Positions 14,718 through 40,641 of a stretch of 64,000 nucleotides of DNA are shown here, piece by piece. The notes under the pieces are model-generated. The model made no database searches. It worked only from the letters and a program-made list of their open reading frames with translations, and was not told where the DNA came from. Numbering within the stretch: the first letter of the stretch is position 1; every line of letters begins with the position of its first letter. Both the position numbers and the translations under genes were made by a program. The stretch spans positions 4,541 to 68,540 of the forward strand of contig JAUSKK010000016.1 in assembly GCA_030649345.1 (NCBI GenBank), read 5' to 3'. This DNA comes from Candidatus Iainarchaeum sp. Lineage in GTDB: Archaea > Iainarchaeota > Iainarchaeia > Iainarchaeales > 0-14-0-20-34-12.

Positions 14718-17690
14718 TTAATTCTTTTTCAATTGGTTTTCAATTTCTTGCTCTAATAATTTCAAAAATTTGTCTTGCTGGTCTATTGGAACCCTGCAGC
14801 CCGCTGCTGGACGATGTCCTCCACCTTCAGCTCCTTCAATTTGTGCACAGCAAGTCTTCAAAAGTGTTCCTAAATTTAATCCAGCCCGAACCAAATCATC
14901 ACTTGCGCGAGCACTAATCTTCAAATTCCCATCCGGATATTTAGAAATCGCAATAATGGGTTTATTATGTTCCAGTATTCCAGAGCCATACAGCATTCCT
15001 GCCACAATTCCAATAATGGAATCTTTAATTTTTCCTTTGGAATCAAAATAATAATAATTTTTTCTTTTCTCCACTCCTTGTTCTGTAACCAATCTAAGTC
15101 CTTCACTGAGTTCTCTTCGATGATTGGCAAGCAAACGCAAAGCTTCATCGTAAGCATTCGAACGATTTCCTAAACACACTTGCAAAGCAATATCTTCATT
15201 TTCATGGCGTGCACAATTATGAACTACTATTCCATTTGCAATATAGTTGTGTGTTTCATCTACTGTAAAATCATAAACTTCGCTTATTCCATTCACTTCT
15301 TTTATCTCTTCAATTTTTTCCCAAGTTAAATCTGATTCCAAATGTGAATAAATTATTTTTATAAGATTGGATGCATGACCTAATTTAGTTATCACGACTT
15401 TAATGCCATTACCCAGCTTTTTTTGGGCATTCGCTCCAGGCTTTTTTCCTTCAATAATCCGGTAAGTCCATTCTTCTGATAATTCACAATATTGACTAAA
15501 TTGCCTTGTGCTTATTTTGGCATTTTCTAAAAATTCAGGTAACTTTTTGTTTTGCAAAAATTTATCCACGGCAGCAATTTTTTTTTGTAGCTGTACTTCA
15601 AAATAGTCTATGAACTTAACTGCGTGCTGTCTTGTTGGATTAACTGCGCTTTTTTTATAATACGTAAAAATACTGCTGATTTCATTTGGTATTCCAAGCA
15701 AATCTTTCAATTCCAATAACTCATTTTTAATTTGTGGCATTATTTCATAATTCGAATTATCCAATTGTGTGTTTTTTATGAACTTTCTTATTTTTAATTG
15801 GTAATGGCTATTTTTCATTATAGGTTCTAATTTTTTAAAATTTTCAATTCCAGTTATAAACAACCTATATTTATTGCCTGTACAATCTTTGCATGGTTTG
15901 TTTGTGACTGTGCTGTTTATTGAAAATTTTAATAGGATATTTTGAAAATCGTTCATTATCTCTTTGCTGTGACTTGCGTAGGTTATGCTTCTGCCGGACA
16001 TTGAACCATCGCTTTCTAATAACCCGCGAATACACGCAGCAGCGTTCTTCTTGTTTAGAAACGGTATTATTTTTTTAAGAGTGATCTGTGTGTCTTTTTT
16101 CCCTTTAGGAACTCCTAACCTGTTGAAAACTTCAACCAGTGTTTTTCCATTTATGTAAGCACTAAAATAGGTCGGCCGGCGGTCATAGGATAATTTGCTT
16201 ATTCCAAACAAACTTTTTATTATGTGTTTATGTTTTTTGAATATTCGTCTGCCTTTCAGAGTATTGGGGTAAATTAATCCTATATTGTGTGTGTCTAAAT
16301 GTCCGTCTCCTAAAATAAACCCATACAACTCAAAGAAATTCGAATTTAGTTCAGTGTTTTTTATGTAATTTATGCATCGCTTAAATCTGAATCTATTTCC
16401 ATTCGAGCTCCATTGTATTTCATCTTGCTTAAAAAAATCTTTTGCATACGTTTTTTTAATTTCTATATCCGGAATGCTCCGCAGCGTGGCAACATAATCA
16501 CCAGTACGTAACTTTTCTAGTTCGTGCCAGCCAAATGTGTGATTGTAGGATAAAATTTCATGATTTTGTGTAGCAATAAGTGTTTTTTTTCTATTTGTTT
16601 TTAACTCCAGTAATTTAATTCCTGGCGGCACTGCAATTTTATGTCTTTTTTCAATCTGACTTTTGCTGTATTTCAAACTTTTTTGGTTAAGACTCAGCAG
16701 TTTCTCTTTGTCAAAATTTTGTATTGGGATGTTTGTCCCATTTGAATCCAAAATGAGTGTATCTGCTGTCACACAGGCATTTAGAATGGTTCCATATTCT
16801 TTAGCATCCTTTAATGGACTACCCCAACTTTCTTTTGTTAAAGTATACACTTCTCCAATTAAGGATTGAATTTTCCATTCCGGAACATTGACTTGATGCA
16901 AATACAAAATCAAAGCAGTCGTAAATTTTTGTTTATCGTCCAAACTTAATTCTTCATAACTTGGCCAACGATTATCTTGTTTTATTTTAATTCCATTTTC
17001 ATGCAAAAAAGAAACGCAAGCTCCTTCATTTCCAGTTAAACCTGGCAACATCGGAGAACTGGCAAACATTAAAAATTGAACCAAAGGCCGTGAAATTCTT
17101 CCATACAAACGTAAATCAATTTTTTTTTCTAACACACCTGCGCTAATTCCATCTTCTAAAATTTCCCGATTCAAACCAATCACTTTTCCAGAGCTATCCT
17201 GCACATCTCCACAAGCTCCCACAATTCCTAAATCGGCTAAATCTTTATTTTTTTCATTTAACATTCTGGCAAAAAAATAAGCTGAACCACTAGCACTCAA
17301 TTCATAACTTCCACTAAATCCAAATGTGTTTGCATTGAAGTGATTTTCATGATCACTTGTAACCTGATGATGATCTAAAACAAAGAAATTTTTTCCAAAT
17401 TCTTTTTCTAAAGGAATTAAATAACTAGAGCCTAAATCCACAAAAATAATGTTTTCAAAACCCAATTCTGCTTGTTTTGCTTTCAGTTCTAAAACAATTT
17501 CTGCATACAATTGCTTCAAAATTCTAGTGCCTAAAACTTTTTTGTTTTCCCGTTGCAAAGCTTTAATCACAATTGCAGTTGACGTACATCCGTCAGCGTC
17601 ATGATTTCCAACAATAAAAAAATTATCCAAATTCCTTATTTTTCCAACAATTTGTGTCAATCGTTCTTCGAATGCTTTTTGGTCTCCCAT
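14718..17690 (-). CDS. archaeal RecJ/Cdc45-like DHH-family nuclease (GAN-like), interrupted by an in-frame intein
   Basis: DHH motifs (IVGNHDADGC and FVLDHHQV). DHHA1 GGGH motif (GAEGGGHRPAAG). Extein is about 470 aa after removal of the 520-aa intein. Confidence 0.7.
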   Translation of the reverse strand: MGDQKAFEERLTQIVGKIRNLDNFFIVGNHDADGCTSTAIVIKALQRENKKVLGTRILKQLYAEIVLELKAKQAELGFENIIFVDLGSSYLIPLEKEFGKNFFVLDHHQVTSDHENHFNANTFGFSGSYELSASGSAYFFARMLNEKNKDLADLGIVGACGDVQDSSGKVIGLNREILEDGISAGVLEKKIDLRLYGRISRPLVQFLMFASSPMLPGLTGNEGACVSFLHENGIKIKQDNRWPSYEELSLDDKQKFTTALILYLHQVNVPEWKIQSLIGEVYTLTKESWGSPLKDAKEYGTILNACVTADTLILDSNGTNIPIQNFDKEKLLSLNQKSLKYSKSQIEKRHKIAVPPGIKLLELKTNRKKTLIATQNHEILSYNHTFGWHELEKLRTGDYVATLRSIPDIEIKKTYAKDFFKQDEIQWSSNGNRFRFKRCINYIKNTELNSNFFELYGFILGDGHLDTHNIGLIYPNTLKGRRIFKKHKHIIKSLFGISKLSYDRRPTYFSAYINGKTLVEVFNRLGVPKGKKDTQITLKKIIPFLNKKNAAACIRGLLESDGSMSGRSITYASHSKEIMNDFQNILLKFSINSTVTNKPCKDCTGNKYRLFITGIENFKKLEPIMKNSHYQLKIRKFIKNTQLDNSNYEIMPQIKNELLELKDLLGIPNEISSIFTYYKKSAVNPTRQHAVKFIDYFEVQLQKKIAAVDKFLQNKKLPEFLENAKISTRQFSQYCELSEEWTYRIIEGKKPGANAQKKLGNGIKVVITKLGHASNLIKIIYSHLESDLTWEKIEEIKEVNGISEVYDFTVDETHNYIANGIVVHNCARHENEDIALQVCLGNRSNAYDEALRLLANHRRELSEGLRLVTEQGVEKRKNYYYFDSKGKIKDSIIGIVAGMLYGSGILEHNKPIIAISKYPDGNLKISARASDDLVRAGLNLGTLLKTCCAQIEGAEGGGHRPAAGCRVPIDQQDKFLKLLEQEIENQLKKN
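15216..16775 (-). mobile_element. intein with LAGLIDADG homing-endonuclease domain, residues 306-825 of the DHH nuclease
   Basis: N-splice Cys (NA|CVTADTLILD). Two LAGLIDADG-like blocks (LYGFILGDGHL and LLESDGSMS). C-splice VVHN|C. Confidence 0.7.
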
Positions 17691-17750: not shown

Positions 17751-17984
17751 TTAATTGGAGCTTTTTTGAACCGGTATTTTGGAAACACTAACTTCAGCTA
17801 AAGATTTTGCAGGAATTCTCTCTTTAATGGCCAGTAATTCTATTCCTAAAATATTGCCATCTTTGTCAAAATCTGCAATAGTTTTGTTATCGATTTTTTT
17901 GTTTTTATAAAATGTGCCTTTTCGAAACGAAATATACATTGCATTTGCGTCTAAGTCAATTTTGATCTTCATAACTATACCCAA
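17751..17984 (-). CDS. DUF2283-like small protein (putative antitoxin partner)
   Basis: 77 aa. 10-nt overlap with the upstream DUF4258-like gene. Confidence 0.4.
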   Translation of the reverse strand: MGIVMKIKIDLDANAMYISFRKGTFYKNKKIDNKTIADFDKDGNILGIELLAIKERIPAKSLAEVSVSKIPVQKSSN

Positions 17985-18202
17985 TATGTGGTTATAATCT
18001 TAATAATTGTATCCGTTTTTTGGAAAACAACTTCTAACCTTCCTTTGAACGTATTTTTAGTAGCTATCCAGGTATCTTTTTGTTTTTCAATTCTTTCTGC
18101 CTGTTCAATGACCTCTATTACTAAATCCAACGATACTCCTCGTTGGTGCATTCTTTCCTGTGCATGACCTGTAAGTAGGTATTTCATTTTCTCCAAATAC
18201 AA
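17975..18202 (-). CDS. DUF4258-like small protein (putative toxin)
   Basis: LTGHAQERMHQRGVS resembles the H-A-x-x-R-M-x-x-R-G-I/V-S block of DUF4258. Confidence 0.45.
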   Translation of the reverse strand: MYLEKMKYLLTGHAQERMHQRGVSLDLVIEVIEQAERIEKQKDTWIATKNTFKGRLEVVFQKTDTIIKIITTYWV

Positions 18203-18262: not shown

Positions 18263-18880
18263 TTAGATTTCAATAATCTTATCGCAGAATTCTGAAATGT
18301 ATTCCGCCAAGCTTTTTTTGTGTTCTTTAGCCAGCAACACTATTGAATTGGCTTCATGAATTCTGGATTTGGAAATCAGACTGTGCACAAATTTTTCGAC
18401 AGTATCGTGCTGGTTGTATACCAATAAAGTACTGGCTGAATCCAATAACACAAACTTTTTGCCTTTTAATTCTTTTAAAATATTTTCTGTTAAAACACTA
18501 ATTTCTGTCAATTCTTTTGGAGAGTCCACAAAATAAAAATTTTCTTTGCTGGATTTTTGTCCGCCGCTTTGCATGGTAATTCCATCCAAGAAAACAAGCT
18601 GGTTGGTGTCAATTCCTTGTGCTTTAATTTTTTCTTCCAATATTTGGGCTGGCATGTTAACTGTAATATAAACACCCCAATATTTTTTTTGAATTAAATA
18701 TTTGATAATTCCTGCAATCACTTGATTGTGGCTGGATAAGTTTTCAATAACCAAAACTTGAAAATCTGGATCCAATCCTTCCAGTTCGCGCTGAAAGATC
18801 AACGAAATTTTACGGCTTTCCAACAATAATTCTTCCAGTTCATTTTGAGGTAAAGTAGTTTCAGACATATGAGTGTTCAA
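18263..18880 (-). CDS. KaiC/RecA-superfamily-like protein lacking a Walker A motif (degenerate paralog)
   Basis: No GxxxxGK[ST]. Fold-level resemblance to the adjacent KaiC-like protein (VLLDSAS and VLLAKEH blocks). Confidence 0.3.
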   Translation of the reverse strand: MNTHMSETTLPQNELEELLLESRKISLIFQRELEGLDPDFQVLVIENLSSHNQVIAGIIKYLIQKKYWGVYITVNMPAQILEEKIKAQGIDTNQLVFLDGITMQSGGQKSSKENFYFVDSPKELTEISVLTENILKELKGKKFVLLDSASTLLVYNQHDTVEKFVHSLISKSRIHEANSIVLLAKEHKKSLAEYISEFCDKIIEI

Positions 18881-18973: not shown

Positions 18974-19708
18974 TCATTTCACGTCTTCAAATAATTGCTG
19001 CCCTGCTAAAATATGAACTCCTTCTCGGTCAATGCGTACTGGATGCAAATTTTCGCTGATTTTGGTGTTTCTCATTTTAAGAATTCCTGTGCCGCGAATG
19101 AATTTTTCCTGGAGTTTAGTGTGGTACATTAAAATGACTCCATCCGCTACATATTCTTCCAATCCAAACAAAGAACTGGAATTATCTAAAGAAATTTCAT
19201 TCGTAATAATACTGGTAACATTCAATCGTTTCAGCATTCTTCCCAAACTCAAAATTCGCTTTCTGGCATCCAGTTCTTTTTCAAAATACAATCGAAAAAT
19301 TACGCCTGGATCAATAATGACTCGTTTGGCTCCTAATTTTTCAGTTAAAGTTTCAATCGTATTCCTGAGTTTGTCAAAATCGTACAATTCAATGTTTTCA
19401 ATTTCTAACATTCCCTTGTCCATTTGTTCTCTTAAATTCCATCCAAAATAGGAAGCCATATTCACAAGTTCATCTACTTCTTCTTCTAAAGAAATATACA
19501 CTCCTGGCTCATTATGGTATTTGGCTCCATAATACAAGTATTGCATGCATAGCACTGTTTTGCCTGAACCCGGATCTCCAGAGACAACTACTAAAGAACC
19601 TTTTGGAATTCCACCGTCCAATAATTCATCCAATCCAGGCACTCCGGATTTCACTCTTTCTGGAGTAGTTAAAACATTTTCCGTACTTGCGATTTTTTTT
19701 GCCGCCAT
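18974..19708 (-). CDS. KaiC-like RecA-superfamily ATPase (FlaH/RadB-like, single domain)
   Basis: GVPGLDELLDGGIPKGSLVVVSGDPGSGKT (Walker A). KaiC-type N-terminal G-x-P-G-x-D motif. Confidence 0.6.
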   Translation of the reverse strand: MAAKKIASTENVLTTPERVKSGVPGLDELLDGGIPKGSLVVVSGDPGSGKTVLCMQYLYYGAKYHNEPGVYISLEEEVDELVNMASYFGWNLREQMDKGMLEIENIELYDFDKLRNTIETLTEKLGAKRVIIDPGVIFRLYFEKELDARKRILSLGRMLKRLNVTSIITNEISLDNSSSLFGLEEYVADGVILMYHTKLQEKFIRGTGILKMRNTKISENLHPVRIDREGVHILAGQQLFEDVK

Positions 19709-19844
19709 TAAAATCTCCTGGATTTTAAAGTTTTTGAACTTGAAAATTTTGAAGTCATTAGGATATTAATTGGTTTATTCTATTAAAAGCTTTCTTTAGA
19801 AGAATAGAAAAAAATCAGATACTGAAAATAAAAAAAGTATAAAA

Positions 19845-20131
19845 GGCGTGGTTTTAACTTAAGCAGAATTCCGAAGAAATCTCTCGGCTAATTCTTGAAC
19901 AAGTCAAAAACTAACGCTTAAGTCCCCAACCACACCGAATACTTAGTGATCCAGTCAATTATTAACCGCTGTTCGTTCTAAATCCAAACAAGCTTAACTG
20001 GGTTAATTCGGAATCTGTACCTCAACCGCGGTGGCGCAACTTAAACCCAAGGTTTAAGTGCGCATTAAACCCTGTTGGTTTTAATTGCGGTTGGTGGCAC
20101 GCAGTGCTTCCGCATTGCTCCAGCACTGCTG
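19845..20131. ncRNA. candidate structured non-coding RNA (about 290 nt; SRP RNA-like or RNase P RNA-like size; family and strand unassigned)
   Basis: GC-rich island in an otherwise AT-rich 470-bp intergenic gap. Nested complementary segments (ggcgtggtt/aaccacacc, acttaagc/gcttaagt, agaatt/aattct, ccga/tcgg). A 13-bp hairpin gcgcaacttaaacc-caa-ggtttaagtgcgc. A 7-bp stem cagtgct/agcactg. T-rich flanks on both sides. Confidence 0.3.
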
Positions 20132-20180
20132 ATTAAGTTTTATTCATTTTTTATTCTTTTTCAATCTAAAACTCTGTTAT

Positions 20181-20759
20181 ATGTGGATTTTGGGTTTAAC
20201 TGGAAATATTGCTTCCGGCAAATCAACTGTTTTGCGTTTGTTTTCCAAATATTTTTCCGTCATTGATTCCGATCAAATTGTGAAAAAATTGTACGAAAAT
20301 TCGAAAATTCAAAAACAAATACTCCAAAAATTTGGTTTTACCTCAAAACCTAAATTAGCTGACTTAATTTTTTCAAATAAAACTGCGCGCAAACAATTGG
20401 AACAAATTGTACATCCCTTGGTTTTTAAAGAAATTCAAAAACAATTGCAAACTTTTCGAAAACAAAAAAAAGTATTCTTGGTTGTAGTAGATGTTCCTTT
20501 GTTGTTTGAAACAAAGTTTGAAAAAAAATGCACTTGGACTTTAGTGGTGGCTTCAACACGTAAACTTCAAATTCAGCGTTTGCAAAAACAAGGTTATTCC
20601 AAACAAGAAGCTTTGCAGAGAATGCAAGCTCAAAAAAAGCAAGAATGGAAACTCAATCAAACTGACTTTGTGGTGTGGAATACGAAATCCAAGAAAGTTT
20701 TGGCAACCGAAGTAAATAAATGGATTTCATTCTTTATAGGTTTATATTATGTCTGTTAA
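20181..20759 (+). CDS. coaE: dephospho-CoA kinase, bacterial type
   Basis: N-terminal P-loop ILGLTGNIASGKST. Confidence 0.7.
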   Translation: MWILGLTGNIASGKSTVLRLFSKYFSVIDSDQIVKKLYENSKIQKQILQKFGFTSKPKLADLIFSNKTARKQLEQIVHPLVFKEIQKQLQTFRKQKKVFLVVVDVPLLFETKFEKKCTWTLVVASTRKLQIQRLQKQGYSKQEALQRMQAQKKQEWKLNQTDFVVWNTKSKKVLATEVNKWISFFIGLYYVC

Positions 20760-21243
20760 ACGAATTGCAGTTTACCCAGGAACTTTTGATCCCATTACTT
20801 TAGGGCACTTGGATGTCATTGACCGGGCTTTAAAAATGTTTGACCTTGTCATTGTTGCAGTCACAGACAATTCTGAAAAAAAATCCTTTTTTTCTATTCA
20901 AGAACGTTTGCAGTTGGTTTCCAAAGTTTGCAAAAATAGACCGCGAATTAAAGTCGAATTTTTTTCCGGATTATTGGTAGATTTTATGAAACAAAAACAA
21001 GCCCAAATTATTGTTCGCGGTTTGCGTGAATTGTCTGATTTTGAATTTGAATTCCAGCAAGCTGTCATGAACCGGAAAATGAATCCTGTTTTAGACACTG
21101 TTTTTGTAATGACGGATCCTAAATATTTTTATGTAAGTTCAAGTATGGTTCGGCAAATTGCATTTTTGCACGGCAATATCAATATGTTTGTGCCTAAACT
21201 TGTAAATTTAGCCATTCAAAGAAAGCTTAAAGCCAAAATTTAG
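20749..21243 (+). CDS. coaD: phosphopantetheine adenylyltransferase, bacterial type
   Basis: YPGTFDPITLGHLD nucleotidyltransferase motif. About 160 aa. Overlaps coaE by 11 nt. Confidence 0.75.
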   Translation: MSVKRIAVYPGTFDPITLGHLDVIDRALKMFDLVIVAVTDNSEKKSFFSIQERLQLVSKVCKNRPRIKVEFFSGLLVDFMKQKQAQIIVRGLRELSDFEFEFQQAVMNRKMNPVLDTVFVMTDPKYFYVSSSMVRQIAFLHGNINMFVPKLVNLAIQRKLKAKI

Positions 21244-40359: not shown

Positions 40360-40641
40360 TTATTTGACTTCAACACCAAACTTTGTTTTCAAAGCATCAA
40401 TTAAATCTCGGACTTGTACTCCATTGGTTCTAGCAATTGCTTTAACTCTGCCTAAATTAATTATACGTAAATCGCCTTTCACACTTTTCACTAAATTGGT
40501 GGCAGTTATAGCAACCTGAGAAGCGTACCGTTTGGGCACCCGATTCGCTCTGAGTTTCTTTACATCCAAGTGACGTGTAGTTCTTTTGGGTGTCAGCACT
40601 GGCTTTCCTTTAGGTCGAACTCTTCCAGCAGGCATATACAT
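40360..40641 (-). CDS. small basic nucleic-acid-binding-like protein
   Basis: ORF track. Lys/Arg-rich N-terminus. Confidence 0.35.
   Translation of the reverse strand: MYMPAGRVRPKGKPVLTPKRTTRHLDVKKLRANRVPKRYASQVAITATNLVKSVKGDLRIINLGRVKAIARTNGVQVRDLIDALKTKFGVEVK

Follow-up and report, generated by a model that had tools for sequence, protein, structure and literature searches.

In the genome of Candidatus Iainarchaeum sp., a Candidatus Diapherotrites metagenome-assembled genome (GTDB Iainarchaeia, DPANN), the 472-bp gap separating a KaiC-like gene (18974–19708, minus strand) from the divergent coaE gene (20181–20759, plus strand) contains a stand-alone gene for a 92-nucleotide (nt) small RNA (sRNA). 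Positions are those of the 64,000-nt stretch of contig JAUSKK010000016.1 that was analyzed, hereafter the window. The sRNA gene occupies 19845–19936 of the minus strand (5' GGUGUGGUUGGGG ... CCACGCC 3') and belongs to a covariation-supported family outside Rfam, as established with covariance models (CMs), compensatory changes and an excess of G-U pairs. It lies within a GC-rich island of 287 nt (19845–20131) that a preliminary description, made from the letters alone, had put forward as one candidate structured noncoding RNA (ncRNA) of about 290 nt, with a size suited to signal recognition particle (SRP) RNA or a reduced RNase P RNA. The proposal of a structured RNA stands for 19845–19936, and that of a single RNA of SRP or RNase P type spanning the island is not supported. 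We consider it probable that the island comprises the sRNA gene, its promoter (19937 to about 19996) and a separate element (20017–20129).

The features that had singled out the gap were borne out by measurement. Its length of 472 bp compares with a median intergenic gap of 88 bp in the window (crude map of open reading frames, ORFs), and the island has a GC content of 44.9%, compared with 34.3% for the window, a value reached by just 0.1% of 287-nt segments. T-rich tracts flank the island on both sides, as had been described. The predicted folds of both strands beat all 200 shuffled sequences, with −89.4 kcal/mol (z −4.8) for the plus strand and a clearly stronger −107.7 kcal/mol (z −7.1) for the minus strand. 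GC is distributed unevenly (42.4% at 19845–19936, 36.4% at 19937–20013 and 52.6% at 20014–20129), and no pairing joins the ends of the island in the minus-strand fold, which is made up of independent local domains.

A covariation-supported family of small RNAs

Loci were fetched through relatives of the KaiC-like protein, and 88 of them, all from Iainarchaeia (Diapherotrites), were searched. The first homologues were segments of about 90 nt on the KaiC strand, just 5' of KaiC in loci L002 and L003, which align with the minus strand of 19845–19936 (GGCGUGGUUGGGAGG...CCACGCC). A pattern search followed by CMs yielded 15 members in total, the window copy and 14 homologues of 74–92 nt, and an nhmmer profile search recovered the identical set. 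A CM built from eight relatives (R1) detects the window copy with 46.1 bits (E 8.6e-7) at 19845–19936 on the minus strand. Since R1 was trained without the window copy, this match is an independent test of homology; a later model (R2) scores the same copy at 64.8 bits. Homology is limited to this 92-nt part of the island (BLAST and nhmmer, 88 loci), and neither CM nor nhmmer found a copy within 3 kb of about 70 other Iainarchaeia KaiC loci.

Covariation support is strong. In the 15-sequence alignment, which was fitted to the CM, 94.9% of the pair cells are standard pairs, versus 28–47% when the partners are slid by 1–3 columns, double changes occur in 18 of 28 pairs, and none of 500 column shuffles attains any of five covariation measures. 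An independent MAFFT/RNAalifold analysis of 8 sequences returned the same helices with 11 compensatory pairs. The preliminary description had named no strand. The conserved RNA is read from the minus strand, because G-U cells greatly outnumber A-C cells in the 15-member alignment (49 versus 8) and because reverse-strand CM scores fall about 50 bits below the forward ones. Among the outcomes that would speak against an ncRNA, the lack of an Rfam match at gathering score was the only one observed: the homologous intergenic regions covary, and no protein-coding ORF occupies the place of the RNA in relatives.

All four helices form in the window copy, a single U-U mismatch being the sole flaw. P1 pairs GGUGUGG (19930–19936) with CCACGCC (19845–19851); in the family it is a 7-bp, nearly invariant helix (GGYGUGG/CCACRCC) whose position 3 covaries between U-A and C-G. 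It is followed by an asymmetric internal loop, with UUGGGG (J1/2, 19924–19929) facing UAAAA (19852–19856) in the window. Across the family, the 5' side of this loop reads UUGGGRG plus 1–2 nt and the 3' side spans 5–11 nt and is often U-rich; UUGGG is invariant in the first 8 aligned sequences and present in 14 of the 15 members overall (UGGGG in L008). P2, formed by ACUUAAGC (19916–19923) and GCUUAAGU (19857–19864), has 7–8 bp in the family, with compensatory changes in all 7 modeled pairs. The P3 hairpin (19887–19915) counts 12 bp here versus a 7-bp family core, with several G-U pairs and the loop CUUGU; its length is variable, and double changes affect 6 of the 7 core pairs. The P4 hairpin (19865–19882; AGAUUUC-UUCG-GAAUUCU, with the U-U mismatch) is stacked straight onto P2 and follows the consensus GRAUUC-(UUCG/CUUG)-GAAUUC, its cap being usually UUCG or CUUG. 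P3 and P4 abut P2 without linkers in a three-way junction, the only unpaired segment of which is the purine-rich J3/4 (4–6 nt). The sequence is most conserved in P1, in the junction core and along the 5' strand of the internal loop.

Some of the nested complementary pairs initially picked out by eye correspond to this fold: ggcgtggtt/aaccacacc and acttaagc/gcttaagt are P1 and P2, confirmed by covariation. The pairs agaatt/aattct and ccga/tcgg are indeed complementary and appear in the plus-strand single-sequence fold, but they are plus-strand alternatives that the family does not conserve; it instead conserves P4 (19865–19871/19876–19882) and P3 (19887–19898/19904–19915). An extra helix proposed by alifold (GGGAG:UUUUU) was discarded, as it is not kept in the second subfamily, and a crude all-versus-all column screen of the 15 sequences for tertiary or pseudoknot pairs was uninformative.

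Putative promoters and terminator, and the second element

The 70 nt upstream of the RNA are conserved in every member. When the 15 upstream regions are aligned, their consensus reads GGTTTGGTTTGCAAA..CAATTCTTTTATTTTTCAAAAGC..TATATTA, then GGYGUGG, with the GGTTTGGTTTGCAAA box at about −58 to −44, the T-rich core of CAATTCTTTTATTTTTCAAAAGC at about −34 to −25 and the AT-rich proximal TATATTA immediately before the first G. In the window, where this region covers 19937–19996 of the minus strand, the upstream box is GTTTGGATTTAGAAC (19975–19989), and a TATA-like TTAATAATT (19957–19965) is centered about 25 nt 5' of the RNA start. Given its resemblance to a transcription factor B recognition element (BRE) and TATA box, and its fixed distance to the RNA, we infer that the conserved block is an archaeal BRE/TATA promoter with a proximal element. 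The presence of such a conserved promoter inside the supposed ~290-nt RNA implies that 19937 to about 19996 is promoter DNA and not folded RNA. A bacterial sigma-70 promoter/terminator scan was set aside as not applicable to an archaeon.

Downstream of the RNA, the oligo-T tail TTTTATACTTTTTTTATTTTC (19824–19844, minus strand) is likely its archaeal terminator, and T-runs follow the 3' strand of P1 in most members. Between the RNA and the KaiC start lies a further promoter-like block, GTTAGCTTTTTAAAGAAGTTAATGCCTATATC, whose TATA-like core AGCTTTTAATAG (19780–19791, minus strand) would belong to the KaiC-like gene's own promoter; the homologous block is conserved, and it is the same in relatives with or without the RNA. 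Transcription of the sRNA would begin at or beside the first G, under an archaeal promoter of its own, and stop at the oligo-T tract.

The remaining GC-rich part of the island is an orphan structured element (20017–20129, strand unassigned). It consists of a hairpin at 20101–20129 with a GGA/GGA internal loop and, in the minus-strand fold, a three-way junction at 20017–20100 whose arms are two similar palindromes (TTAAACC..GGTTTAA), namely TTAAACC-CAA-GGTTTAA and TTAAACCC-TGTT-GGTTTTAA. Two structures of the preliminary description belong here: the 13-bp bulged hairpin, which is present as described, and the cagtgct/agcactg stem, which is present and has 8 bp (20101–20108/20122–20129) rather than 7.

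Neither BLAST nor nhmmer found a homologue of this element in the 88 Iainarchaeia loci, and Rfam gave no match to it. The nearest coaE relative is 46% identical and located in a different context, the nearest KaiC relative is 77% identical, and what occupies this spacer in relatives is unrelated: hairpin repeats, tandem repeats, a small ORF or an insertion sequence (IS). A tandem-palindrome pattern scan of metagenomes returned 19 loci, all unrelated, and a scan of viral sequences retrieved palindromes only. We also rejected the idea that the element is a paralogue of the sRNA, given scores of at most 8.8 bits with filters off; the resemblance of TGCGGTTGGTGG (20084–20100, plus strand) to the invariant 5' GTGGTTGGG of the sRNA, in inverted orientation, is probably due to chance (8.8 bits).

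The element may be a second sRNA, an upstream part of the first or a palindromic insertion without function. The chances of its being a lineage-specific RNA, either on its own or joined to the 5' end of the sRNA, and of its being such an insertion are roughly equal. To the specific proposal that it acts at the DNA level and is no functional RNA, either as a palindromic insertion or remnant resembling a miniature inverted-repeat or palindrome-associated transposable element (MITE- or PATE-like) or as a pair of operator palindromes, we assign a little less than an even chance. Its base pairs, about 40 in number, are nearly all Watson-Crick, with about one G-U compared with 12% in the sRNA family, both strands fold significantly, and the two palindromes resemble each other (TTAAACC-N3/4-GGTTT(T)AA). 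The element is moreover restricted to this lineage, and in relatives an IS200/605 insertion and unrelated repeats, hairpin or tandem, have entered the spacer. However, it lacks terminal inverted repeats and has no further copy in the 64 kb, its minus-strand fold is the better one (z −5.35 versus −3.74), and strongly folding GC-rich islands in AT-rich archaeal genomes are the classic signature of structural RNA.

Alternatively, the second element and the 92-nt RNA could form one composite minus-strand transcript of about 290 nt, in which the family RNA of this lineage would have an added 5' part. The T-runs between the two are only short, the second element is better read from the minus strand in view of its purine-rich internal loop (GGA/GGA) and its single G-U pair, the sRNA promoter lying between them is diverged in the window, and a minus-strand motif at about 20156–20174 (GTTTTAGATTGAAAAAG) resembles the family promoter CTTTTATTTTTCAAAAG. 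The latter may be a chance resemblance, because this stretch of 18% GC also serves coaE. Since the sRNA promoter still has a recognizable upstream box and TATA-like element at the conserved distance, the domains fold independently and no relative carries an extension of this kind, we regard a composite transcript as unlikely.

Putative role of the sRNA and comparison with known families

Each of the 15 copies lies immediately 5' of a KaiC-like gene of the same orientation, which is either KaiC_A or an additional paralogue ahead of KaiC_A. The KaiC-like gene of the window begins 137 nt downstream of the sRNA, and the distance ranges from 85 to 190 nt in the family, or 2.5 kb where an IS is inserted. 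The upstream neighbor varies, being coaE in the window, L008 and L089, a glycosyltransferase (GT) pair in most other loci and ribonucleotide reductase in L059. In six loci (L009, L010 and L085–L088), the coaE-GT1-GT2-KaiC synteny is maintained with GT identities of 80–85%, and the whole ~180-nt module is missing; the flanking genes and the KaiC promoter are kept in the module-less L009, L010 and L085. In L005 (215–265), the promoter box and a portion of the TATA region are left, the RNA being deleted. The absence of the RNA from close relatives makes it accessory at this locus and counts against an essential housekeeping role.

Judging from sequence, its most likely role would be that of a trans-acting, protein-bound accessory sRNA tied to the KaiC-like module. 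It would act in trans as a stable protein-bound RNA, with P1, the internal loop and the junction core providing a recognition surface and P3 and P4 serving as structural arms, and it may work with, or regulate, the adjacent KaiC-like (RecA-superfamily) ATPase. A conserved core combined with a variable P3 and generic P4 tetraloops is the pattern of protein-bound or ligand-binding RNAs. The link to the ATPase is not an essential one, because close relatives have lost the RNA. No kink-turn and no guide-RNA boxes were seen in the sRNA.

Several observations weigh against an independently transcribed, trans-acting sRNA linked to KaiC. The box and TATA-like element of the window copy, though at the conserved distance, are more diverged than those of its relatives, and the promoter-like motif upstream of the second element would suit a longer transcript. 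T-runs after P1 are weak in L020, L023 and L011, and read-through to KaiC is therefore possible there. Complements of the conserved 5' segment occur within the window at chance level only. Finally, about 70 Iainarchaeia KaiC loci have no nearby copy, and adjacency to KaiC could be synteny inherited within the class.

The sole weakly similar motif in Rfam is RAGATH-32 (RF02922), a motif of unknown function typed as cis-regulatory. It was the top Rfam match for 3 of 5 members tested singly (L089, 19.7 bits, E 0.0068; L011, 18.1 bits; L015, 14.4 bits), and the window copy and L007 gave no match to it at E <= 10. Compared through the Rfam model only, the two share a 5' GUGGYUGG, two consecutive hairpins of which the second is UUCG-capped, and a 3' UAA(G/C)UCA. 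In contrast to these similarities, all scores lie far under the 41.8-bit gathering score that defines membership, the alignments lack about 18 model positions, and the Rfam model annotates neither P1 nor P2. A pattern derived from the RAGATH-32 consensus had a single match in viral contigs, a coding sequence. A distant relationship between RAGATH-32 and the sRNA family is possible. It enters a broader proposal, which we consider rather doubtful as a whole: an undescribed DPANN class of structured RNAs with a distinct biochemistry, which might serve as a KaiC-binding cofactor or regulator, or as a ligand-sensing or self-processing RNA distantly akin to RAGATH-32, with the orphan element as a second, lineage-specific domain. 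A hammerhead-like core was searched for by eye and in Rfam, and neither a motif nor a match was found.

The main rival to a trans role is a cis-acting leader, a riboswitch-like element or attenuator that would govern read-through into the KaiC-like operon. The constant position directly 5' of KaiC in the same orientation, the aptamer-like conservation of nucleotides in the junction and the internal loop, and the cis-regulatory typing of RAGATH-32 are all consistent with it, as are the weak terminators after P1 in some members and the U-run that some carry just before the 3' strand of P1. This rival is weakened, however, because a KaiC promoter and terminators intervene: the conserved promoter between the RNA and the start codon is unchanged where the RNA is absent, and in most members, the window copy included, the RNA is followed by strong T-runs. 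The variable distance to the start codon (85–190 nt or 2.5 kb) likewise argues against a leader, which we deem distinctly unlikely. We favor a separately transcribed, trans-acting sRNA.

That the whole island encodes one housekeeping RNA of about 290 nt, whether archaeal SRP RNA or RNase P RNA in reduced form, is hardly credible: its size, its GC contrast and its minus-strand z of −7.1 would be suitable, and DPANN RNAs can be so divergent that standard models miss them, but the RNA of the 14 relatives measures just 74–92 nt and comes with a promoter and tail of its own, the remaining ~115 nt lack homologues, and the RNA is missing in close relatives, which is unexpected for an essential RNA. 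The two families that had been suggested are not supported by the CM searches either. No Rfam 15 family reached its gathering score in the whole 64 kb, and searches of 19650–20300, 19990–20150 and 19838–19942 at E <= 10 gave only chance-level microRNA and sRNA matches, with none to the SRP and RNase P models. Reading both strands by eye showed neither the helix-8 motif of SRP RNA (GNAR/AGCA) nor the pairing of conserved regions I and V (CR-I/CR-V) in P4 of RNase P RNA.

Archaeal SRP (7S) RNA (RF01857) resembles the present case as a GC-rich structured RNA in an AT-rich archaeal genome, with about the length of the full island, and the three-way junction and two hairpins of the sRNA superficially recall the helix 5/6/8 S domain. 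Unlike SRP RNA, the island has no helix 8 and its ends are unpaired, and its conserved unit, which relatives can do without, spans 74–92 nt rather than about 300 nt. Archaeal RNase P RNA (RF00373) is similarly GC-rich and multi-helical, and the plus-strand UAAGUCCCC faintly recalls CR-I. The island differs from it in size, in lacking a CR-V partner and in lacking an AAGUCC/GGCUU-type P4 pair on the transcribed strand. The CR-I candidate was rejected, being the complement of the P2/J1-2 region of the minus-strand RNA.

ARAGORN predicted no tRNA in the window and none in 19700–20200 with default or intron settings, and relaxed thresholds in the latter interval gave implausible calls only. Transfer RNA, transfer-messenger RNA and split or intron-containing tRNA were discarded on these results; a cloverleaf is also incompatible with the fold, because P2 encloses both P3 and P4. 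Box C/D and H/ACA guides were rejected as well: Rfam gave no match to them, no C/D boxes were found by eye in the 15 members, and no conserved ACA follows P1, where the bases vary among members. The Hgc RNAs of Methanocaldococcus, reportedly found as GC-island small RNAs in screens of GC content, offer a parallel in the mode of detection, as GC-rich folding intergenic islands with a promoter and an oligo-T terminator, and their function is likewise unknown; unlike them, the sRNA comes from a DPANN lineage, adopts a different fold and has no sequence or CM similarity to HgcC, HgcE, HgcF or HgcG. A viral origin of the sRNA was discarded, all 31 pattern matches in the viral scan scoring at most 26 bits.

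Genomic neighborhood and implications

A second conserved RNA-like motif, which combines a closing stem, a loop with GGAGG, a hairpin with a UUCG or GAAA cap, and GGACUUUGAYGC, occurs just downstream of the sRNA in four loci (L011:344–410, L020:2848–2915, L023:2855–2920 and L089:618–680) and alone upstream of KaiC in L046 (~2846–2902). It is absent from the window; its L011 copy folds with z −5.1. The spacers beside KaiC carry various other insertions. An IS200/IS605-type element (Y1 transposase tnpA plus tnpB) lies between the sRNA and the KaiC paralogue at L012:543–2164. Mutually unrelated repeats are found at L008:1869–1975 (three tandem AUCUUCGGAU hairpins) and at L089:440–560 (tandem AAAAAGAAATTTGC), and GC-rich palindromic repeats at L041:2751–2990.

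On the other side of the gap, the coaE-coaD pair (20181–21243, plus strand) encodes a bacterial-type dephospho-CoA kinase (CoaE) and a phosphopantetheine adenylyltransferase-like CoaD in an archaeal genome. The coaE gene appears leaderless, a TATA-like TTTTTTATTC preceding its ATG by about 25 nt, and the synteny of the coaE/coaD genes with the KaiC cluster holds in many Iainarchaeia loci. On the KaiC side, a DUF4258/DUF2283 pair of small genes, probably toxin-antitoxin-like (17751–18202, minus strand), stands between the two KaiC-like genes (18974–19708 and 18263–18880) and a gene for a 990-aa RecJ/GAN-like DHH/DHHA1 protein (14718–17690, minus strand) that contains an intein with a LAGLIDADG homing-endonuclease domain. 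The RecJ/GAN-like DHH protein and a protein with a class III signal peptide are typically archaeal neighbors. The KaiC-like protein encoded at 18974–19708 matches, at 100% identity, an NCBI protein from a Candidatus Diapherotrites metagenome-assembled genome. A link to defense systems was considered and dropped, nothing being found beyond a weak P-loop match to PADLOC mad8. Another short gap of higher GC in the window (40360–40641, minus strand) is a 93-aa, highly basic, ribosomal-protein-like ORF and not an RNA.

We know of almost no ncRNAs described in DPANN archaea beyond rRNA, tRNA and guide RNAs, and our literature search found no ncRNA of such a kind described for Diapherotrites. On the comparative evidence, the RNA motif is solid, and it is either new or at most remotely RAGATH-32-like. 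No mechanistic surprise is yet in evidence, and should the function prove routine, for instance that of a minor regulatory sRNA, the result would be a useful annotation. The locus also illustrates that a GC island taken as one RNA can be a gene, its promoter and an unrelated palindromic element. With its covariation, its putative promoter and terminator, its partnership with KaiC and its presence/absence variants, the family would offer a tractable entry to the roles of sRNAs in reduced genomes and to the interaction partners of the abundant archaeal KaiC-like ATPases.

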